Assembly: GCA_031409335.1 (NCBI GenBank)
Contig: JANNWY010000229.1
Span: 1 to 57,068 of the forward strand
Source: Chthoniobacteraceae bacterium
GTDB lineage: Bacteria; Verrucomicrobiota; Verrucomicrobiia; Chthoniobacterales; Chthoniobacteraceae
Length of the DNA stretch: 57,068 nt
Direction of reading: 5' to 3'
How positions within the stretch are numbered: the stretch's first letter is position 1; each line of letters begins with the position of its first letter. The position numbers and the translations under genes are program-made. Of the stretch, positions 17,251 to 38,634 are shown one piece after another. A model generated the notes under the pieces. That model ran no database searches. It had not been told where the DNA came from and saw only the letters and a list, made by a program, of their open reading frames with translations.

Positions 17251-19455
17251 CTAGAACGTTCCAGCCGCTTTTCTCCCCACCCAAAACACGCCGAGCAGCA
17301 ACACGATCAATCCCGCCCAAGCCGGATGCGCCCAGAGTTGCACGCGGCGCTCTTGTAACTCCGGCTGCGGCAGCGCAGCGATGGCGGCGATGACGTCCGC
17401 CGGATTGGCGCTTTCCATCATGCGGCCGCGGGTGAGTTGGGAGATTTCGCGGAGCACGTCGAGCTTGGCGGGCTGGCCGCGTTTTTCGCGGCTCGTGCCT
17501 TGCACGGAGATCGTGGCATCGAGCGCGGAGCCGGCGTCGGCGCAGGAAAGGCGGACGGTGTGTTCGCCGGGTTCGGTCGGCGTGAAGACGGCGGTGAAAA
17601 GCCCCCACGCTTCCTCGCCCGGCGGATTCATGCGCACGCTCGATGTTTTCCCGGATGGTCCCGTGATCTGCGCGATGACCGCGCCGTCGCGCAAGGGTTC
17701 GCCGGTGAGGCTGGTCACATTGGCATTCAGCGTGAGCGCGCTGCCGGCGAGGGGGCGGTCGGGCGAGTAGAAGAGGCGCATCTTTTCGCCCTGCGACATG
17801 TTCCGCTGATAAGCCATCCAGCGCACGACCTGGCCCCAGAAGCGGTAGTGATATTTGTCCTCCACCCCCTTGCGCCAGCGCCATGCGCCGTCGGTGCCCA
17901 TGAACAGGATTTTCCCCGAGCCGTAAGTCTTCGTGACGATGAGCGGCACGCGTCCGAAACGGTTCGTCTCCGTCGCGTGCGTCGCGAGGATTTCCGAGCC
18001 GGCTTTCGCGCGGATGGCGGGCGCATACCATTGGAAACCGGGAAGCGTTTGCCACACCCGCGCGCTGGCTTCGTCGGTGTCTTCCAGCTTCGTGAGCAGG
18101 CTGCGCGCGCCGGATTCCGTGAGCGCAAATCTGCCCGGCGAGGATGTGCCCCAGCCGCGCGGCTGCGTTTCGTCCCACACGATCGGGATGAGTTCCGCGA
18201 GCGCGGTGCCTTGCAGCGTCGCTTCGTTGCCGCGCAGGCCGGGCATGAAGACGAGCCCGCCCGCTTGATCGCGCACGAGTTTTTGCAAAGCGGCGCACTG
18301 CTCCATCGTGAGCTGGCCTTTCGCCGTGCCCACGTCGCCGAGGAAAACCACGTCGTATTTCGTCAGCTCCTCGTCCTTCGGCATCGCCGGGAGATAGCCG
18401 CGACCTGCGCCGGGTTTTTCGAGGTCGGGTTGGAAAAGGAGGCAGTTCAGGGACACGCCCGGATCGCGCTCCAGCGCGTTGCGCAGGTAGCGATATTCCC
18501 AGCGCGGATAGGACTCGACGATCAGCACGCGCAGTTGCTCTTTGCGAATCGCGAGCGGCGCTTCGATCGCGTTGTTTTCCATGAAACGCTCCGCGCCCGT
18601 CTTGGGCACCGTCAGCGTCACTTTCACGTCGCCGGGCTTGTCCGGCTTCCAGGTGATCGCATCCTGCAAACGGCTCATCGCCGGGATGACGACGGATTTC
18701 GTCACGACTTCGCCGGTCGAGGATTTCATCTCGATCGTCGCCGCCTCATCGCGCGGCAGCGAACTCTCGATGCTGAACGGCATCCGCAGCGGCTTGCCCG
18801 CGATGGCGAAAGTCGGCACGTCGAAACTCGTCAGCTCCACATCCGGCAGGCGCGTCTCGGCCCCGAGCGGCACGGCGAAGACCGGCACCTCGCGCATCCG
18901 CAATCGCGTCGCCGCCTGCGCGGGTGCTTCGCCGCTGTTCCAGTCGCCGTCGCTGAGCAGCACCACTGCGTGGAGTCGCGGATGTTTTTCCGCCGCCGCG
19001 AGCAGCGCGCCATTGATGTCCGTGCCTTCCTCGGGAGGTTCCTGGCTGGAGGAAAAAGATTCCACCGCGATTTCCATGCGCTCGGAGATTTCGCGCCACG
19101 CCGCGATGTCGCTCAGCGGTTTGGCGAGGTCCGCGCGTGACTTTGGTTCGGCGGAAGGATTTGCGGAATCAATCACGTCGCGGGTCTCCATCGAGTGCGA
19201 CGTGTCGTTCAGGATCAGCAGCGTCGGTTTGCTCTCCGGCTTGAAAACTTCGCGCCACTCCGGCTGGTTCAGGGTCACCGCGATGGCTGCCGCGATCAGC
19301 ACGCGCAGCGCCTCCAGCACGCCCGTGGAAGTGCGAAAACCGCTGCGTCGCCACGCCATGAATGCGAGCCCGGCGATCACCAGCACGAACACAATGCCGA
19401 CCGTGAGTGAGGTCGGCGTTTGCGTGAAAACGAGGGATTGGCTCGCGGGTTTCAT
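17251..19455 (-). CDS. Membrane protein with vWA-like and glutamine-amidotransferase-like domains (MoxR operon)
   Basis: N- and C-terminal TM segments, DTSHSM, LLSDGD, PRWEYRYLRNAL, WRWR...HYRFWGQ. Confidence 0.82.
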   Translation of the reverse strand: MKPASQSLVFTQTPTSLTVGIVFVLVIAGLAFMAWRRSGFRTSTGVLEALRVLIAAAIAVTLNQPEWREVFKPESKPTLLILNDTSHSMETRDVIDSANPSAEPKSRADLAKPLSDIAAWREISERMEIAVESFSSSQEPPEEGTDINGALLAAAEKHPRLHAVVLLSDGDWNSGEAPAQAATRLRMREVPVFAVPLGAETRLPDVELTSFDVPTFAIAGKPLRMPFSIESSLPRDEAATIEMKSSTGEVVTKSVVIPAMSRLQDAITWKPDKPGDVKVTLTVPKTGAERFMENNAIEAPLAIRKEQLRVLIVESYPRWEYRYLRNALERDPGVSLNCLLFQPDLEKPGAGRGYLPAMPKDEELTKYDVVFLGDVGTAKGQLTMEQCAALQKLVRDQAGGLVFMPGLRGNEATLQGTALAELIPIVWDETQPRGWGTSSPGRFALTESGARSLLTKLEDTDEASARVWQTLPGFQWYAPAIRAKAGSEILATHATETNRFGRVPLIVTKTYGSGKILFMGTDGAWRWRKGVEDKYHYRFWGQVVRWMAYQRNMSQGEKMRLFYSPDRPLAGSALTLNANVTSLTGEPLRDGAVIAQITGPSGKTSSVRMNPPGEEAWGLFTAVFTPTEPGEHTVRLSCADAGSALDATISVQGTSREKRGQPAKLDVLREISQLTRGRMMESANPADVIAAIAALPQPELQERRVQLWAHPAWAGLIVLLLGVFWVGRKAAGTF

Positions 19456-19579
19456 CGTCCTCGTCCTCCTACTCGTCCTCGAAACATCGTTGCCGGCATA
19501 TTCGCGCTCAAAGTCGTTGCACCTCCGCTGGGACCGCTTCCTTCGAGGACGAGTAGGAGTAGGAGGACGAGGACGAATT
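19455..19579. repeat. Inverted pair of GAGGAC/GAGTAG hexamer arrays with no cargo gene
   Basis: Arms at 19455-19483 and 19542-19579 around a loop of about 58 bp. Confidence 0.9.
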
Positions 19580-21565
19580 CGTCTCCCTGCGCGGCGGCAT
19601 GCAGAGCAACGCCTCGCCGAGCAGCGCGAGCGCCATGGCCATTAAGAACGTGCGCCAGACTTCGTTCGTGAGGCTGCGTCCATCTTCGAGGTTGTCCGTG
19701 AGAACGCGGAAATCGAGGCCGGCGAACAGGTCGTTCAGCGCGGGAGTGGAAAGTGCGGTGGGCAGATCTTCGCCGGGTGGGCGGTTCAGTGCGGTGATTT
19801 TTTCGCCCGCGGCGACGACGCCAGCGCGCAGCGGAAGACTCGCCGAAATCACCGCGTCCGCTTTTTCCTCCACGCGCTTCCACGCCGACGGATCGGCACC
19901 GAGAGCCGTCGCTGACGCCACGCGCTGCTGCGCCTTCCCGAGCGTGCGCGCCCCTTCGTTCAGCGCGCGATGAAGCATCGCAAACATCACGACACCATCG
20001 CGCGCCAGACTGGATGCGCCCGATCCTGGCAGCGTTCCGAGAAAGTAGACGCTTCCATTTTGCTCCTGCGCGGAGCGCATCAGTAGCGGCGCACGTCCGC
20101 TGACGCGCGCGAGCGGCACGCCTTCGCCCGCGATGCCGCAGCGGCGCGAGACTTCCAGGGAACCCACCGGCAGCGCCGCGCCGTCCCGCGTGTTGGCGAG
20201 CAGATCGGCATCGTTGCGCCACCATTCCAGCGTGAGTGGTTTGTCGGTCGCGGCGGATTCCCAGCGGTCCCAGCGAAGGCCGAGAATCTCCGACACATCC
20301 GGCGTTTCCGGCGGGAGAAAGATAATCGTCCGCCCAGCGGCGGCGTGATTTTGCAACTGCCGCGCGAGCACGTCGTCCGCTTTTGGAATCGGCGCGTGCC
20401 ACACGATGAGCGCCGCGTCTTCCCAGGGAATCTCCGCCGCGCGACGCACGTTCAGCGTCGTGGCGAGGTATTTCCGCGCGGGATCGGCGGCGGCGGAAAG
20501 CGCGGCGTTCAGCGGGCCGGACTCCGCTTCATCATCGGAGACAATCACCGAGCGCATGGGCGGAGCTTCGTCGAAGACGAAATGGAAAACGTTGTTCGCG
20601 GGGCACGAGTCGGCGGGCAATTCCACGCGGCCCCAGCCGCGCTTCACGGTCTTGTCGATCGGGATCGCGTGTGCCTGCATCACGAGCTGATTTTCTTTCA
20701 CCGCGACTTTCAGCATCGTGGTCACGCCATTGATGACGAAGCGCAGCGGCACTTCCACTGGCGGCGGCGCGTCCCCGTTTCGCGCGACGCGCAGATCGAG
20801 CAGCAGCTCCGCCTTTTCACTCGTCTCGCGACGCACCACGCGCTCGACGCTCACCGCGAGATCATCCGGCGCGGCTTGCGGATAGCAGAGCAGATGAAAT
20901 CGCACGCCTTTCAAACTGCCGAACGCGCCGCGCAGCGTCTCCCAGCGCCCGCCCGCCGAATCCCAATCGCTCTGCTGAAGATCGCTCACGAGCCACACAT
21001 CGGTGCGCTCCGTTTTATTCGTGGTGATGAAATCGAGCGCGCCTTGCAGCAGCGCGGGGATGTCCGCCGCCGTTTCGGTCGCCTCGGTCTGCGGTAAATC
21101 GAGAAGCGCATCCGCTTTCGCGAGCGCCTGCGGCGTGCCGAGCGCGCTGTCGAGCAGCACGAGATGCGAGCGCGTGCCGACGGCATCCGTGATCGCCTTC
21201 GCGACATTGCGCAGACCCGCGATGCGTTTGCTCACGCCGGTCGCGGTGTTCTGCTGCTCCATGCTCGCGGAGCGATCGAGCAGGATCATCACCGTGTCCG
21301 GCGCGCCGCCCGTGAGCCCGAGCCAGCCGCCGGCGAGCGGTCTGGTGATGACAAAGAGTAACGCGGCGATCGCCAGCACGCGCAGCGCGAGGATGAGCAC
21401 TTGCTTCAACCGCGAGAGCCCCTTGTTCATCCGCTGCGCGGCCAGCAGGAACATCATCGCCGCCCACTTCACCTGCCGCCGACGGTAGAGATGGATGAGA
21501 TGAATGATGACCGGCAGCGCGGCGAGCGGCAGGGCGACGAGCAACGCTGGTGCGAGGAAGGTCAT
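19508..21565 (-). CDS. BatA-domain / vWA protein
   Basis: MTFLAPALL...LPVIIHLI...WAAMMFL BatA N-terminus; LDRSASM MIDAS-like motif; repeat-derived tail NSSSSSYSYSSS. Confidence 0.88.
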   Translation of the reverse strand: MTFLAPALLVALPLAALPVIIHLIHLYRRRQVKWAAMMFLLAAQRMNKGLSRLKQVLILALRVLAIAALLFVITRPLAGGWLGLTGGAPDTVMILLDRSASMEQQNTATGVSKRIAGLRNVAKAITDAVGTRSHLVLLDSALGTPQALAKADALLDLPQTEATETAADIPALLQGALDFITTNKTERTDVWLVSDLQQSDWDSAGGRWETLRGAFGSLKGVRFHLLCYPQAAPDDLAVSVERVVRRETSEKAELLLDLRVARNGDAPPPVEVPLRFVINGVTTMLKVAVKENQLVMQAHAIPIDKTVKRGWGRVELPADSCPANNVFHFVFDEAPPMRSVIVSDDEAESGPLNAALSAAADPARKYLATTLNVRRAAEIPWEDAALIVWHAPIPKADDVLARQLQNHAAAGRTIIFLPPETPDVSEILGLRWDRWESAATDKPLTLEWWRNDADLLANTRDGAALPVGSLEVSRRCGIAGEGVPLARVSGRAPLLMRSAQEQNGSVYFLGTLPGSGASSLARDGVVMFAMLHRALNEGARTLGKAQQRVASATALGADPSAWKRVEEKADAVISASLPLRAGVVAAGEKITALNRPPGEDLPTALSTPALNDLFAGLDFRVLTDNLEDGRSLTNEVWRTFLMAMALALLGEALLCMPPRRETNSSSSSYSYSSSKEAVPAEVQRL

Positions 21566-21594
21566 GCGTGGCAGATGCCTCCACGACGGGACGG

Positions 21595-21788
21595 TGAGGG
21601 CCAACGGCCCGGCAACAAACCAGCCCAGGGCAACGCCCTGGGTTTACGATCGAAATGGGATGAAGCCCTGAAGGGGCGCGACAAAATCCCCGCCGCGATT
21701 TGCACCGCCCCTACAGGGCTGTGATCGTGTGCCGTGGGAACCCAGGGCGTTGCCCTGGGCTGGTTTGGGGCCGCACCTTTGGTGCTCA
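21595..21788. mobile_element. Non-autonomous REP-doublet / MITE-like palindromic element
   Basis: Perfect 29-bp IR (21616-21644 / 21739-21767), inner IR (21664-21678 / 21706-21720) and outer mini-palindromes. Confidence 0.8.
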
Positions 21789-21851
21789 ATGCGCTGGTGC
21801 GACGGGTGAAGGTCGAACTCGTCGCGGCGTAAGCTGGCGTTTCGTCGCTCA

Positions 21852-22760
21852 TCATCGCGCGCCGCGTTTCGGAGTGCGGCCGAGCAGGAAGCGGATGAGC
21901 GCGTCGTCGTAGCGCTCGTGCATTTTCACGCGGTGATAATCCACGCCCGTGGTGCGCACGAGTTCGTCCATTTCGGTGAGGTAAAGGCGCACGGCTTCGC
22001 GGTAATTCCGCGCGATCAGCGAGGGATCGGCGAGCACGGCTTCGCCACCTTCCATGTCGATGAAGCGCGCGGGCCGGTCGAAGTCGAAATCGAGTTCCTT
22101 TTGGTCGAGCAGATGAAACGCGGCGACATCGTGTTTGCGAAAACGCAGATGCTGGATCGCGGTTTTCAACTCGGCAGGCGGCACGAAAAAGTCCGAGAGA
22201 ATCACGACCAGCGCGCGCTGCCGGATTTTTTCCGCGGCATCGTGCAGCGCCGTGAGCAGCGTGGTGCCGCCGACGGGCTGGATGCCCGCCATTTGATCGA
22301 GCACCAGCCCGACATGCGAAGCCCCGCGCTTGGGCGGAATCTCCACCGGCTTTTGCGCCAGACTCCACACGCCCGCCGCGTCGCCCTGCTGCGCGGCGAG
22401 ATACGCGAGCGTGCCGCCGAGCTTGCGCGCGTAGTCGAGCCGCGTCGCGCCATTCGGGCCAAAACCCATCGACCCGCTGGCGTCGATCAACAGACAGAGC
22501 CGGAGGTTGGTGTCGGCCTCAAATTCCTTGATGTAAAACCGGTCGCTGCGTCCCCACGTCCGCCAGTCCAGCCGCCGCGTGTCATCGCCGGGGACGTATT
22601 TTCGATACTGCGCGAATTCCAGCGACGACCCGCGCACTGGACTGCGATGTTTCCCCGAAACGCTGCCGAGCATCGCGTGGCGCGCGTGCAGTGGGAGCGC
22701 CATCAGACGGCCAAGCACGGCTGGTTCGAGAAAGCTGCGATTGTTTGAAGAAGCGGCCAC
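21852..22760 (-). CDS. DUF58 family protein
   Basis: GKHRSPVRGSSLEFAQYRKYVPGDDTRRLDW, IDASGSM; GTG start at 22760 inferred. Confidence 0.92.
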   Translation of the reverse strand: MAASSNNRSFLEPAVLGRLMALPLHARHAMLGSVSGKHRSPVRGSSLEFAQYRKYVPGDDTRRLDWRTWGRSDRFYIKEFEADTNLRLCLLIDASGSMGFGPNGATRLDYARKLGGTLAYLAAQQGDAAGVWSLAQKPVEIPPKRGASHVGLVLDQMAGIQPVGGTTLLTALHDAAEKIRQRALVVILSDFFVPPAELKTAIQHLRFRKHDVAAFHLLDQKELDFDFDRPARFIDMEGGEAVLADPSLIARNYREAVRLYLTEMDELVRTTGVDYHRVKMHERYDDALIRFLLGRTPKRGAR

Positions 22761-22764
22761 GGCA

Positions 22765-23205
22765 CTAATTCGTCCTCGTCCTCCTACTCCTACTCGTCCT
22801 CGAAAGTTCCCCCGTCGCATCGGCCTCAACCTTCTCCTCAAACCGCTCGACCAACCGCGAAAGAACCGAAACCACGCGAATCAACAGCGCCTTTCCCTCC
22901 GCGACACGTCCGCTTTCCACAGCACACTTTGCAACCAGCGCATCCAGACACGCCGCGCATTCCGTCGCAGAACCGCGCGCATCATCGAAGAACCGCACGC
23001 GTTGTTGTGAGGCGCGCCGGCCATTTCCCTCCGCGATGTTTAGAAGGACGGAAAGGCTGGCCCGGTCGAGTTGGTCGAGCGTTTCCGCGACGCGCCTTGG
23101 CTTCGCGACGTGCAGCTCATCAAACAAATTCGCCAGCCATGTGATGAACCGGAGTTGCAGTTGGTAAACGTCGAGTTTTTCGTGATCGAATTGCTGCGCG
23201 GGCAT
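22765..23205 (-). CDS. Four-helix-bundle protein (23S rRNA intervening-sequence protein family)
   Basis: FDHEKLDVYQ, DQLDRASLSVLLNIAEGNGR, FFDDARGSATECAACLD. Confidence 0.92.
   Translation of the reverse strand: MPAQQFDHEKLDVYQLQLRFITWLANLFDELHVAKPRRVAETLDQLDRASLSVLLNIAEGNGRRASQQRVRFFDDARGSATECAACLDALVAKCAVESGRVAEGKALLIRVVSVLSRLVERFEEKVEADATGELSRTSRSRRTRTN
22767..22804. repeat. Hexamer-array arm at the 3' end of the four-helix gene
   Basis: 38-bp exact reverse complement of 19542-19579. Confidence 0.9.
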
Positions 23206-23209
23206 GGGA

Positions 23210-23255
23210 TCGAGGACGAGTAGGAGTAGGAGGACGAGGACGAGGACGAGGACGA
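23210..23255. repeat. Hexamer-array arm just upstream of the four-helix gene
   Basis: tc GAGGAC GAGTAG GAGTAG (GAGGAC)x4 ga; inverted relative to 22767-22804. Confidence 0.9.
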
Positions 23256-23263
23256 TCTTCCGC

Positions 23264-24283
23264 TCACGCCGCCTTGCTTAGTTCCTCCACCAGCCGCTTC
23301 GCGACATCGCGGCTCGTCACACCATCGCTTTCGGCGGTGAAGGTCGTCATCACACGATGCCGCAAGACTGGATCGGCCACGGCGACGACATCCTCCATGC
23401 GCACCATGTAACTGCCATTCAGCGCCGCCCGCGCTTTCGCGCCGAGGATGAGATATTGCACCGCGCGCGGACCGGCTCCCCAGCTCACCAGGGGCTTCAG
23501 CCACGCGGGCGATTCGCTGCTGCCGGGGCGCGTGCGGCGGGCGAGATCGACGGCGAATTCGTAGAGATGATCCGGCACCGGCACGCGGCGGACGAGGTCT
23601 TGAAACGCGAGCACTTTTGGGCCGTCGAGCACATGTTCGAGCTGCGGCAGCGCCATCCCCGTCGTGCTGCGCGCGATCGCGATTTCCTCGGTTCGCGATG
23701 GGTAATCCACGCCGATCATAAACATAAAACGATCGAGCTGCGCCTCGGGCAGCGGATACGTGCCTTCCTGCTCGATCGGATTTTGCGTCGCCAGCACGAA
23801 GAACGGCGAGTCGAGCGTGTAGGTGCGGCCCGCGACGGTCACGCGATGTTCCTGCATGGCTTCCAGCATCGCGGCCTGCGTCTTGGCGGGCGCGCGGTTG
23901 ATTTCGTCGGCGAGCACGATGTTCGCGAAGACCGGCCCTTTCGCGAATTCGAACGCGCGTTTTCCGCCCGGCAGTTCCTGCAAAATGTCCGTGCCCGTGA
24001 TGTCCATCGGCATGAGATCGGGCGTGAATTGAATGCGGCTGAAACTCAGCGACATCGTCTCCGCGAGCCGGCTGATGAGCAGCGTTTTCGCCAGCCCCGG
24101 CACGCCCATGAGCAGCGCATGGCCGCGCGCGAAAAGGCAGATCGCCAGTTGTTCGATCACGTTTTGCTGGCCGACGATGATCTTCCCCAACTCCGCGCTG
24201 AGCCGCCCATAAACCAGGCGCAGTTCGTCGATCGCGGCGACGTCATCTTTCGGGAGGGGAGCGGACTGCGCGGGATTTTCCAT
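23264..24283 (-). CDS. moxR: MoxR-family AAA+ ATPase
   Basis: GVPGLAKT Walker A, RIQFTPDLMPMD, LADEINR, ATQNPIEQEGTYPLPEAQLDRF. Confidence 0.95.
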   Translation of the reverse strand: MENPAQSAPLPKDDVAAIDELRLVYGRLSAELGKIIVGQQNVIEQLAICLFARGHALLMGVPGLAKTLLISRLAETMSLSFSRIQFTPDLMPMDITGTDILQELPGGKRAFEFAKGPVFANIVLADEINRAPAKTQAAMLEAMQEHRVTVAGRTYTLDSPFFVLATQNPIEQEGTYPLPEAQLDRFMFMIGVDYPSRTEEIAIARSTTGMALPQLEHVLDGPKVLAFQDLVRRVPVPDHLYEFAVDLARRTRPGSSESPAWLKPLVSWGAGPRAVQYLILGAKARAALNGSYMVRMEDVVAVADPVLRHRVMTTFTAESDGVTSRDVAKRLVEELSKAA

Positions 24284-24375
24284 GGGCGTGATTTAGGGAT
24301 TGGCGTCATTAGTGGCAAGATTCGCGAATCCGTTCAGAAGGCGGCGAAATTATCCTCAAAGCGTAGATCGAAGTC

Positions 24376-24470
24376 ACCGCGAAAAACACGGATGACGCGG
24401 ATGTTTGGAGCGTGCTTCGGAAAAATTTCCCCTCCTCCGTGTAATCCGCGTATTCCGCATAATCCGCGGC
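24376..24470. repeat. Inverted pair of approximately 9-bp (ACGCGGATN-like) tandem arrays
   Basis: accgcgaaaaacacggatgacgcggat (24376-24402) versus tccgtgtaatccgcgtattccgcataatccgcggc (24436-24470). Confidence 0.65.
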
Positions 24471-24561
24471 AATTCTTCACGATCAGTTTCAGGCCCATTC
24501 CGCCGTGCCGCTCGCGAATCTTCTGGCGCGGTGCGGGCGCTCACCTATTCGTCGGGGCGCG

Positions 24562-27387
24562 ATGAAATCCCTCACGCCATCTCTTTTGCTCGTGATTTTC
24601 GCCCCGCTGCTCCACGCTGCCGACCGTGTGCCGTGGACGACTTCCCGCCTCCGCGGATCGCCCGAGCCGCCGCTGCCATATCGCGTCGAGCGCGCGTTTC
24701 CAAAGATCACTTTCGACAATCCGCTCGATGCCGCGACGATCCCCGGCACCGATCGTTTCGTCGTCGCGCAACAGCGCGGGCGGCTGGTTTCCGTGCCGAA
24801 TGACGAGGCGTGTGAAAAGGCGGACGACTTCGCCGACTTGAAGCAATTCCATCCCGACGCGGTGGAATGTTACGCCTTCACTTTTCACCCGCGCTTTACC
24901 GAAAACCGTTTTGCATTCATCTGGATGAACCTCGACGGACGCGGAAAAAAGAACCGCGAGGACGGCACCCACATCGTCCGCTTTCGCGTCACCGAGGGAA
25001 ATCCGCCGCGCCTCGATCTCGCGAGCGGCACCACGATTTTCACCACGATGAGCGGCGGCCACAACGGCGGCGGCTTGCGCTTTGGCCCGGATGGAATGCT
25101 CTACATCGCCGCGGGCGACGCCGCCGATCCCGATCCGCCCGATCCGCGCGCGAGCGGGCAAAATATCGGCGACGTGCTGGCGAGCATCCAGCGCATCGAC
25201 GTGGATCGCCCCGATGCAGGCCGCGCGTACGGCATTCCGAAGGACAACCCATTCGTCGCCACGCCCGGCGCGCGCGGCGAGGTGTGGGCGTACGGATTTC
25301 GCAATCCGTGGCGGATGACTTTCGACAGGAAATCCGGTGCGCTGTGGGTCGGCGATGTCGGGTGGGAACTTTGGGAAATGATCTACCGCGTTGAGCGCGG
25401 CGGGAACTACGGATGGAGCATCACCGAAGGTGGGAAGCAGGACGTGCGGCCCGATCGCGCGCGCGGGCCGACGCCGATTTTGCCGCCGGTCATCGCGCAT
25501 TCGCACAAGGAGGCCGCGAGCATCACGGGCGGCGAAGTGTATTACGGAAAAAAGCTGCCGGAACTCGATGGCACCTACATTTACGGCGACTGGCAGCTCG
25601 GCACTTTCTGGTCGCTGCGCGATGGAAAAAGCACGGAACTCTGCCGCAGCACGCTGCTGCCCGTCGGCTTCGGCGTGGCGCACGATGGCGAACTTTTCAT
25701 CTGCGATCAGATCGGCGGCGGGCTGTGGCGGCTGGCGCGAAACCCTGATGCCGGCAAGTTTTCGCGGTTCCCGCGACGACTGAGCGAGAGCGGACTTTTT
25801 GCGGATTTGAAAATGCAAACGCCGTCGGCTGGCGTCGTGCCTTACAAAATCCACGCGGAGCGCTGGGCGGATCATGCGACCTCGGAGCGATGGCTCGCGC
25901 TGCCCGGCGAGGAGAACATCACGATCGCAAAAAAGGAACTCGGCGTGATGGGTCCGGGGCGCTGGGTTTTCCCGGCGGACGGCGTGCTCGCGAAAACGTA
26001 TTCGCTCGAAATGGAGCGCGGAAATCCCGCGACCGCGCGCCGCATCGAAACGCAAATCATGCACTACGACGGCATCCAGTGGGCCGCTTACAGCTACCGC
26101 TGGAACGATGCGCAGACCGACGCGGAACTGGTGCCCGCGGATGGTGCCGACGTTACCTTTGATGTGAAAGACTCCGCCGCACCCGGCGGCGCACTCCGCC
26201 AGCCGTGGCGCTATTTTTCGCGCGCCGAATGTCTGCGCTGCCACAACCTGTGGACAAATTTCGCGCCCGGTTTTTCCCCCGCGCAACTCGACCGCAAAGC
26301 CATCGCCGAAGCGGGCGATCCGCTTGCTTTGCTGACTCGCCTCAAACTGCCGCCCGAGCAGCCGACTCTCGCAAATCCGCACGGCGCGACTGGCAGCATT
26401 GAGTTGCGCGCGCGTTCGTACCTTCATGCGAATTGCGCGACCTGCCATCGCTACGGCGGCGGCGGTTCGGTGCCGACGATGCTGAACATCGAAACCAAAC
26501 TCGCCGACGCGCGGCTCATCGGTGTGAAGCCCGTGCAAGGCGATCTCGGCCTTCCCGACGCGCGCATCGTTGCATCCGGCGATCCATTTCGCAGTGTGCT
26601 GCTTTACCGCATGGCCACCGCAGGCCGCGGCCACATGCCGTATCTCGGCGGCAGACTCATCGACGATCGCGGCCTGCTGGTCGTGCGCGATTGGATCGCC
26701 GGGATGAAACGCGACGGCAACTCCACCGCCGATTCTTCACCGCTCGCCGATGCTTTCGCTGTCATCGACGGCACGCTCAAAGGTGACGCGCGCGATCAAG
26801 CCATCGCCAAAGGAGCGGCGCTCACCGATCCGATGCAGCGCGATCTCTTCGAGCGTTTCCTCCCCGAATCGCAGCGCCGCAAAGTGCTCGGCCCCGACCT
26901 CCGCGCCGATGCACTGCTCGCGCTCACCGGCGATGCCGCGCGCGGAAAAACGCTCTTCTCCGCGATCTGCGGTGCGTGCCATCGCGCGGGCGATGCCGGC
27001 ATCGACTTCGGCCCCGACCTTTCGCACATCGGCGCAAAATACGAGCGCGCCGCGCTGCTCGAACAAATCCTCCAGCCCGCAAAAATCATCGAGCCGCAAT
27101 GGCATCTCGCAACCGTGACCATGAAGCATGGCGATCCGCTCACCGGCTTCATCGCCGCGCGAACCGCCGCCGAGATCACGCTGAAAATGGCCGACGGCGA
27201 ATCGCGAAAAATTTCCGCCAACGAAATCAAGGAGGCGACGACCGCCGCAATTTCCATGATGCCCGAGGGCCTGCTGCAAAGCCTCACCGCGCAGGAAGCC
27301 GCCGACCTGCTCGCATTCGTTTCATCGCTCAAACGATCAGATTCCAACCGTCCACCAATGAACGCCGAAGGCTCTGGACTGCGGTGA
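24562..27387 (+). CDS. PQQ-dependent (GSDH-like) beta-propeller dehydrogenase fused to three c-type heme domains
   Basis: HNGGGLRFGPDGMLY, YGFRNPWR, GGNYGW; CLRCH, CATCH, CGACH; SMMPEGLL. Confidence 0.88.
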   Translation: MKSLTPSLLLVIFAPLLHAADRVPWTTSRLRGSPEPPLPYRVERAFPKITFDNPLDAATIPGTDRFVVAQQRGRLVSVPNDEACEKADDFADLKQFHPDAVECYAFTFHPRFTENRFAFIWMNLDGRGKKNREDGTHIVRFRVTEGNPPRLDLASGTTIFTTMSGGHNGGGLRFGPDGMLYIAAGDAADPDPPDPRASGQNIGDVLASIQRIDVDRPDAGRAYGIPKDNPFVATPGARGEVWAYGFRNPWRMTFDRKSGALWVGDVGWELWEMIYRVERGGNYGWSITEGGKQDVRPDRARGPTPILPPVIAHSHKEAASITGGEVYYGKKLPELDGTYIYGDWQLGTFWSLRDGKSTELCRSTLLPVGFGVAHDGELFICDQIGGGLWRLARNPDAGKFSRFPRRLSESGLFADLKMQTPSAGVVPYKIHAERWADHATSERWLALPGEENITIAKKELGVMGPGRWVFPADGVLAKTYSLEMERGNPATARRIETQIMHYDGIQWAAYSYRWNDAQTDAELVPADGADVTFDVKDSAAPGGALRQPWRYFSRAECLRCHNLWTNFAPGFSPAQLDRKAIAEAGDPLALLTRLKLPPEQPTLANPHGATGSIELRARSYLHANCATCHRYGGGGSVPTMLNIETKLADARLIGVKPVQGDLGLPDARIVASGDPFRSVLLYRMATAGRGHMPYLGGRLIDDRGLLVVRDWIAGMKRDGNSTADSSPLADAFAVIDGTLKGDARDQAIAKGAALTDPMQRDLFERFLPESQRRKVLGPDLRADALLALTGDAARGKTLFSAICGACHRAGDAGIDFGPDLSHIGAKYERAALLEQILQPAKIIEPQWHLATVTMKHGDPLTGFIAARTAAEITLKMADGESRKISANEIKEATTAAISMMPEGLLQSLTAQEAADLLAFVSSLKRSDSNRPPMNAEGSGLR

Positions 27388-37998: not shown

Positions 37999-38634
37999 GT
38001 CCCAGCGGGACAACAGAGATTAGCCGGTGGCGTAAGCCACCGGGACACGTCCTCACACGCATCCGCCCCGGCAGGGGCGGCGGAACAGCGCTTACCACAA
38101 ATATCGATCGTCGTATTCCACGCCACCGAGTCGCAGGAATTCGAGATACTCATCCTGATACGTCTGTTTCCGATGATGTTCCTCCTGCCGTCCGATGTAG
38201 CTGCAAACATGCACGCACTGTGGCGGACTCACCGTGAAACCGCCGTATCCCTCCTGCCACGAAAAGCCTCGGTCGCCGATTTCGTCATGCACCCAGCCCG
38301 ACGACACAGATTTCACCGAGCCGACGACATCGGCGAGGCAATGCGTCGCCCGCAGGCCAATGAGTAAATGAACGTGGTCGTCAACTCCGCCGACAGTCTC
38401 CGCGACTCCGCCGAGGTTGCGCACGATTCCGCCGAGATACGCGTGGAGCCGTTCGCGCCATGCGGGAACGATGAATGGCCGACGTTCCTTCGTGCTGAAT
38501 ACGATGTGATAGTGAAGCGAGAGGTGTGTGGATGGCATGGCCGTTTTTTTCCAGCGCCCCTGCCGGGGCGCACGCATTATCTCCGCAATCCGGTGGCTTA
38601 CGCCACCGGCTAATCTCCAGCGTCCCTCCGGGAC
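37999..38634. mobile_element. IS200-like / REP-associated Y1 transposase element with tripartite inverted ends
   Basis: Perfect 28-bp IR (38016-38043 / 38590-38617), perfect 16-bp IR (38064-38079 / 38555-38570), outer gtccc-N3-gggac palindromes. Confidence 0.85.
38092..38538 (-). CDS. tnpA: IS200/IS605-family Y1 (HUH) transposase
   Basis: HYHIVFSTKER, DHVHLL (HUH), WQEGYGGFTVS, YIGRQEEHH. Confidence 0.93.
   Translation of the reverse strand: MPSTHLSLHYHIVFSTKERRPFIVPAWRERLHAYLGGIVRNLGGVAETVGGVDDHVHLLIGLRATHCLADVVGSVKSVSSGWVHDEIGDRGFSWQEGYGGFTVSPPQCVHVCSYIGRQEEHHRKQTYQDEYLEFLRLGGVEYDDRYLW

Follow-up and report, generated by a model that had tools for sequence, protein, structure and literature searches.

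An Avd-like four-helix-bundle gene with its own inverted hexamer arms at a moxR-DUF58 junction in Chthoniobacteraceae: a candidate protein-plus-repeat cassette

Here, a four-helix-bundle gene and a pair of inverted hexamer arrays (the arms) were analyzed between moxR and a DUF58 gene in a 57,068-nt stretch of Chthoniobacteraceae DNA (the window). The cassette is real and well supported as a unit. Judged from sequence, the reading that we favor, at slightly less than an even chance, is that this Avd-like gene and its own hexamer arms constitute an old, conserved protein-plus-cognate-repeat cassette, in which the protein would likely read the arms. Since the gene carries a candidate target on both flanks, the function of PF05635 proteins becomes directly testable. 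Dispersed short-repeat hairpins, like the ORF-bearing intervening sequences of rRNA, could have originated from cassettes of this kind. In addition, the locus provides a deep series in which a single junction is filled, empty, broken, or likely swapped, and the result of a controlled mismatch test tilts against an mRNA stem. No description of such cassettes outside rRNA was found in searches of open-access literature, in which spelling variants may hide some.

Organization of the locus and predicted fold of the protein

On the minus strand, moxR (24283-23264) is followed by 8 nt, a pyrimidine array (23255-23210), 4 nt, the cassette ORF, 4 nt, and DUF58. The upstream host gene, an ORF call at 23264-24283, encodes a MoxR AAA+ ATPase (AAA_3 by profile; PF07726, 209.8 bits). 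The downstream host gene, DUF58/vWA, occupies 21852-22760, and its GTG start at 22760 was inferred from orthologues. Between them, the ORF at 22765-23205 (minus strand; ATG at 23205) has 146 codons and was assigned by profile search to PF05635 (56 bits; cut-off, 33.8) and TIGR02436 (51.7 bits; cut-off, 24), with four long helices predicted in the model. The profiles of the ORF and its neighbors agree with the earlier note, in which a gene of the 23S rRNA intervening-sequence protein family had been placed between moxR and DUF58. Only PF05635 was found inside the unit, as expected from its earlier description as free of transposase and reverse transcriptase.

The 5' arm on the mRNA (23210-23255, minus strand), read from the sequence as a pyrimidine array of GTCCTC/CTACTC units, starts 8 nt past the moxR stop (23264), exactly the distance that had been estimated, and ends 4 nt before the ATG. 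The 3' arm (22770-22803, minus strand) is a purine array of GAGGAC/GAGTAG units. It is 100% complementary over 34 nt to the 5' arm at 23210-23243, 406 nt away, in line with the stem of about 34 bp predicted from the two arrays; beyond this perfectly paired part, the pyrimidine array continues to 23255. The two arms had been described as bracketing the gene, but the purine arm actually lies inside the 3' end of the ORF, where it encodes the final residues (SRTSRSRRTRTN), and the stop codon is found 3 nt beyond the arm.

The fold of the arm pair is not a chance product, because the 561-nt segment folds with a z of -4.1 and 0 of 100 shuffles fold equally well. The 34-bp stem is present in both the MFE and the centroid structure. 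Only three perfect inverted pairs of at least 30 nt with a spacing of 250-1000 nt occur in the 7.94-Mb genome, and the cassette pair alone surrounds a called gene. An Rfam search of 19000-25000 returned no match, and a promoter and terminator scan gave counts close to shuffle level, with none at the arms.

The predicted monomer model had a pLDDT of 88.7, with low confidence for the 12 arm-encoded residues at the C terminus. Its best fold match was Xcc0516 (2GSC; Z 16.3, rmsd 1.6, 112 aligned), and BT_0352 (2RLD) matched at Z 14.6. Avd matched at Z 12.9 (4DWL; rmsd 2.0, 106 aligned) and Z 13.3 (8UB7), a level also reached by the unrelated helical bundle 1x8z (Z 13.3). In Foldseek, Avd structures ranked directly behind 2GSC and 2RLD, with E above 0.001. 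The structural kinship to the Avd of diversity-generating retroelements (DGRs) that had been pointed out earlier thus holds as an Avd-like fold in the predicted model (4DWL, 8UB7), and the predicted four-helix fold is common to Avd, Xcc0516, and BT_0352. By sequence, 2GSC was the sole significant PDB match (E 2.6e-5), and the protein scored as PF05635, not as PF22296.

The Avd of DGRs is a pentamer that binds nucleic acid. Solved structures exist for PF05635 proteins, for which we know of no function and no catalytic role. The family is abundant, with 6169 matches at E 1e-20 among 7997 scored candidates. Xcc0516 is described as a homopentamer in the available part of the source (PMC4990558).

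Occupancy, descent, and selection at the junction

Junction loci were collected with the DUF58 protein (30 genome and 80 metagenome loci) and with the four-helix protein (80 loci). Both host genes were present at 108 loci, and 13 of the 110 DUF58 loci were dropped because moxR or part of DUF58 was absent. After deduplication, 99 junctions remained (36 filled, 50 empty, and 13 other). Among the 90 junctions found through DUF58, 27 were filled and 13 held remnants or other DNA, and the empty orthologous sites looked for in relatives were present at 50. Exact ends were also sought by alignment with relatives; the intergenic flanks of filled and empty junctions are too diverged to define either the cassette ends or a target-site duplication.

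On a quick tree, the filled state must have changed at least 12 times, with 8 of the changes forced by starred branches. In the clade with Prosthecobacter records, 26 of 29 junctions were filled. A near-clean loss of the cassette without target duplication was seen in L161 (compared with L163), and internal deletions were found in L180 and L182. A lone 3' arm was left at the junction of L209, a lone arm stood behind a different insert in L142, which belongs to the same genus as the window, and L136 contained a decayed remnant.

Cassettes of the subfamily were found across hosts at 78 loci in 45 host-site clusters. The junction genes do not form a single clade. As 19 genes from other loci nest among them, and given the 45 clusters, new sites have also been reached; one of the 19 (L051) is a moxR-junction locus cut short by a contig end. 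Called neighbors were co-oriented with the cassette in 57 of 60 cases upstream and 49 of 56 downstream, under a procedure that got 1 of 12 known sites wrong and gave incomplete calls for 6. Most cassettes are separated from the upstream stop by no more than about 25 nt. The empty junctions, the armed relatives, and the many co-oriented host sites agree with the earlier proposal that arms and gene form one unit.

Cassette distances followed host distances (Mantel rho 0.52; 0 of 999 permutations), and the five own-family junction genes cluster together, as their hosts do. In the Prosthecobacter-containing clade, three allele groups (support, 95-98) conflict with the branching of the hosts. Close host pairs carried very distant cassettes in two of five cases. 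For L172/L192, the host dS was 0.30, the cassette dN was 0.27, and the cassette dS was saturated; for L043/L129, a host dS of 0.28 went with a cassette dN of 0.007. The trees were obtained with FastTree or a quick IQ-TREE run from short alignments. Close hosts have likely exchanged alleles, for which homologous recombination through moxR and DUF58 is the simplest route.

All 36 junction ORFs were intact in this set, outside which broken copies fall by construction. The median dN/dS was 0.092 over 35 cassette pairs versus 0.088 for DUF58, the window's own gene having no partner within the dS range used. The four-helix gene is under purifying selection. Host-following at depth, discordant close alleles, and purifying selection argue that the cassette is a long-lived junction resident, tracking its host at depth and lost by deletion, rather than a fresh transposon. 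The discrete inserting element envisaged at first is therefore unsupported as far as fresh mobility is concerned.

Arms, gene-less copies, and co-occurrence with the gene

Inverted arms with a score of at least 15 were found at 60 of 80 homologous loci versus 0 of 140 control windows, and a second count gave arms for 26 of 30 family members. Period-6 arms accompany the window's subfamily, and paralogues carry period-7 arms. In the window's genome (G000), 6 of 8 matches to TIGR02436 had their own inverted arms (score of at least 15), several with period-7 words. A second four-helix gene with period-7 arms (L005, G000:C205:36304-36624) follows another moxR paralogue at a distance of about 1.2 kb and, with neighbors read by eye, apparently precedes a BatA-like gene. 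The median match score of an arm to its own partner was 28.5 versus 19 for the arms of other loci, and the own partner was the best match of all in only 2 of 36 loci. Among the junction copies, the 3' arm either takes any of three reading frames or falls outside the ORF, and is thus conserved as nucleotide sequence.

Seven gene-less arm pairs were found in the genome, all with the pyrimidine arm first and with spacers of 15-60 nt; no purine-first pairs were found in the genome-wide arm search. There were also 15 single arm matches, 9 of them inside called genes. Reversed words gave 56 sites and 2 pairs, although another repeat family of the genome is similar to the reversed words, so that this control is not clean. 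One of the gene-less pairs (19452-19573; strand not assigned), which had not been mentioned earlier, lies in the same operon, at the junction of the BatA-domain gene and the next gene, and consists of arms of the same type (32 nt, 91% complementary) around a 58-nt loop. One arm is in the 3' end of the BatA gene and the other ends at the next ATG, with AGGAGG 9 nt upstream of that ATG. Arms at this second junction of the operon were present in G000, G014, and G099, all of which have the gene, and in a changed version in G002; inspection by eye showed none in the remaining 26 of 30 loci. The G002 copy (L267, same genus) has a loop similar to that at 19452-19573, but its left arm is shortened and its right arm consists of a different repeat word. 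Further gene-less pairs occur in G099, G002, and G014.

Some gene-less hexamer pairs share their spacer and flanks and sit between terminal repeats. The same terminal repeats begin an ISKra4-like element (NF033572, 163 bits in a partial frame, below the cut-off of 205) and enclose other, different palindromes. A search of 232 loci located the ISKra4-like terminal motif at 2, neither of which is a cassette.

Co-occurrence was scored in 151 family genomes with one arm 15-mer, a word taken from the window's genome. Four of the 7 genomes that carry the cognate gene had at least 3 copies, versus 2 of 144 without it (Fisher p 2e-5; 4e-4 when the own genome is excluded, kin not being independent), with cut-offs (3 copies; E below 1e-60) set after the tables were seen and with many genomes incomplete. 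The counts suggest an association between arms and four-helix genes, with exceptions both ways. The two arm-rich genomes in which no gene was found, G002 and G031 (71% and 87% complete), have arm remnants at the moxR-DUF58 junction. Of the three gene-bearing genomes that fall short of this count, G131 holds 4 copies of a second arm word outside its cassette; the complete genomes G025 and G021 have 1 and 0 copies of that word, and 0-1 matches to the two arm words. G014 has its own arm variant at its cassette and at 3 other places; this variant is absent from G000, G002, and G099. Co-occurrence is equally expected if the cassette is merely the physical source of the arms.

Known systems and competing explanations

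The cassette belongs to none of three known systems, namely, 23S rRNA intervening sequences (IVSs), REPIN-RAYT, and DGRs. RNase III excises IVSs, and the rRNA fragments are not religated. In the available part of PMC4990558, the IVS in helix 45 of the Coxiella burnetii 23S rRNA has an S23p ORF and a 28-bp terminal stem cut by RNase III, and the ORF is said to be in decay and unlikely to be expressed. As far as this source describes them, the IVSs of Coxiella burnetii and Leptospira have in common with the cassette an ORF of the PF05635 family enclosed by terminal inverted repeats (28 bp versus 34 bp here), a similar size, and sporadic presence among relatives. However, they are located in rRNA, whereas the cassette occupies a protein-coding operon junction and has hexamer arrays as arms. 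The decaying Coxiella ORF also contrasts with a cassette ORF family under purifying selection, and the cassette has dispersed gene-less arm pairs, unlike the IVSs as described there.

According to the available parts of two preprints (bioRxiv 10.1101/2021.07.10.451892; 10.1101/2022.05.22.493013), REPINs are short dispersed hairpins with two conserved inverted ends and a variable spacer, and the RAYT is a single-copy, long-resident gene flanked by cognate repeats, with several gene-repeat pairs per genome. Dispersed hairpins with a variable spacer alongside a single-copy, long-resident, repeat-flanked gene are common to both systems, as are several gene-repeat pairs per genome, and the seven gene-less pairs likewise have inverted ends less than 130 bp apart around a variable spacer. 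On the accounts in these preprints, a RAYT is a Y1 transposase, whereas the gene flanked here encodes a PF05635 four-helix bundle; REPIN ends hold a nested REP palindrome, whereas the arms are one-strand polypurine/polypyrimidine runs without one; and REPIN copies number hundreds, against about ten copies of the hexamer arms. Unlike an insertion sequence or MITE, the unit contains no transposase, and the ISKra4-like terminal motif was seen at none of the cassettes among the 232 loci.

For DGRs, the comparison of Avd draws on the available part of PMC10053308. DGRs have a linked reverse transcriptase and template repeat, neither of which is found near the cassette; the two RVT_1 matches in the genome are on contigs C32 and C149. 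The one DGR-like locus of the genome, on another contig (L317, G000:C149:32500-36500), encodes a reverse transcriptase and its own bAvd (PF22296); it also has a template-like repeat rich in adenine, and FGE-sulfatase-domain genes whose 3' ends match.

In a selected mRNA stem, G-U mismatches are expected to exceed A-C mismatches. In 84 unique stems from 104 loci, there were 29 G-U and 36 A-C mismatches (24:24 for isolated ones), versus 29:7 in 105 control hairpins behind stop codons of the window's genome. The missing G-U excess weakens the RNA-processing and Shine-Dalgarno readings alike, and we infer that the arms are kept matched or recognized at the DNA level, or on both strands, rather than as a selected mRNA stem. 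One such reading is an mRNA intervening sequence, in which the arms would pair, RNase III would cut the stem and free the four-helix message, and selection would maintain this processing, which separates moxR from DUF58. The genome encodes RNase III, the 34-bp stem appears in both predicted structures, the co-oriented junctions mostly place the cassette just behind an upstream stop, and the Coxiella IVS has the same protein family and a like stem in the available part of PMC4990558. Even so, we consider this reading unlikely: long GC-rich stems may tolerate single mismatches, which tempers the mismatch result, but in most copies translation extends into the 3' arm, where a cut would truncate a gene under purifying selection, and 50 empty junctions manage without the cassette. 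Highly improbable is a translational switch in which a Shine-Dalgarno site within the purine arm would be hidden by the stem until ribosomes translating the four-helix gene opened it, so that DUF58 synthesis would be coupled to the cassette. The ORF end is usually close to the DUF58 start, the arms of the five own-family copies end 4-9 nt before that start, and the gene-less copy in the operon has its AGGAGG 9 nt before the next ATG. The purine arm, described earlier as Shine-Dalgarno-like, does end 9 nt before the inferred GTG (22760), but the last GAGGA and AGGAGG are 12 and 19 nt away, a poor spacing for such a site. Moreover, the earlier suggestion of translational control is opposed as a general rule by most Prosthecobacter-clade copies, which have a separate GGAGG/GGGGG outside an arm ending at least 17-18 nt from the start, by the many empty junctions without such a site, and by the 8 of 84 stems with the purine arm on the 5' side.

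The strand-neutral mismatches also fit mutation plus conversion, as they would if the repeats were passive. Here, the gene would have an unrelated job, slippage and conversion would mirror its flanks, the protein would never touch the arms, and the gene-less hairpins would be deletion leftovers hitch-hiking in miniature elements. Internal deletions were seen (L180, L182, L209, and L142), the ISKra4-like terminal repeats around some gene-less pairs enclose other palindromes too, and several kinds of palindrome gather at the junctions of the moxR-DUF58 operon. This account is distinctly unlikely in our estimate, because it leaves unexplained why most family members retain arms (60/80; 26/30), why the subfamily has period-6 and the paralogues period-7 arms, and why every arm-rich genome has either the gene or remnants of it.

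Under the favored reading, that of a protein with cognate repeats, the cassette would likely be co-transcribed with the moxR operon, and its protein would likely recognize the arm sequence through putative binding. Such recognition would maintain the cassette in the genome, together with a family of dependent hairpins lacking the gene; RNase III might also cut the 34-bp stem as a side effect. The unit encodes no inserting enzyme for new copies, and the ISKra4-type terminal repeats around some gene-less copies may indicate one carrier. For a RAYT as carrier, no hexamer-flanked copy was seen by eye among 11 PF01797 matches with 150 nt of flank, and a DGR reverse transcriptase acting in trans was not found in 5 arm-bearing relatives in a search without a positive control. 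A broader version, which we regard as doubtful, would make these cassettes a self-propagating repeat class without its own nuclease: each PF05635 subfamily would read its own short-period inverted arms and recruit a host enzyme to copy cassette and hairpins into operon junctions, with the 23S rRNA IVS as one landing site.

Other repeats were observed in the genome and around the operon. Eight miniature elements of 92-302 nt have common terminal repeats, most of them enclosing a different palindrome or short-period array (G000:C16:9124-9348, C19:13334-13471, C58:676-897, C107:31111-31412, C187:6765-6943, C212, C214, and C228); related ends start an ISKra4-like element at at least 6 contig ends. 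Another dispersed hexamer family, with GATCAA/GAGCAG units in many copies, is found at G000:C23:19990-20120, with look-alikes on C39, C71, C141, C179, and C193. At the DUF58/BatA junction of the window (21595-21788), a nested palindrome has 50-nt outer arms (86%) and 22-nt inner arms; it is likely a gene-less REP derivative, resembling by eye the flanks of a Y1 transposase gene on G000:C188. Upstream of moxR (24377-24469), inverted 26-nt arms with a period of roughly nine bases resemble those around a GxxExxY gene (L009), the same design with another cargo family. Farther along the window (about 38092-38538), a Y1 (IS200/RAYT-type) transposase gene lies between long inverted palindromes, and a near copy is present on C83.
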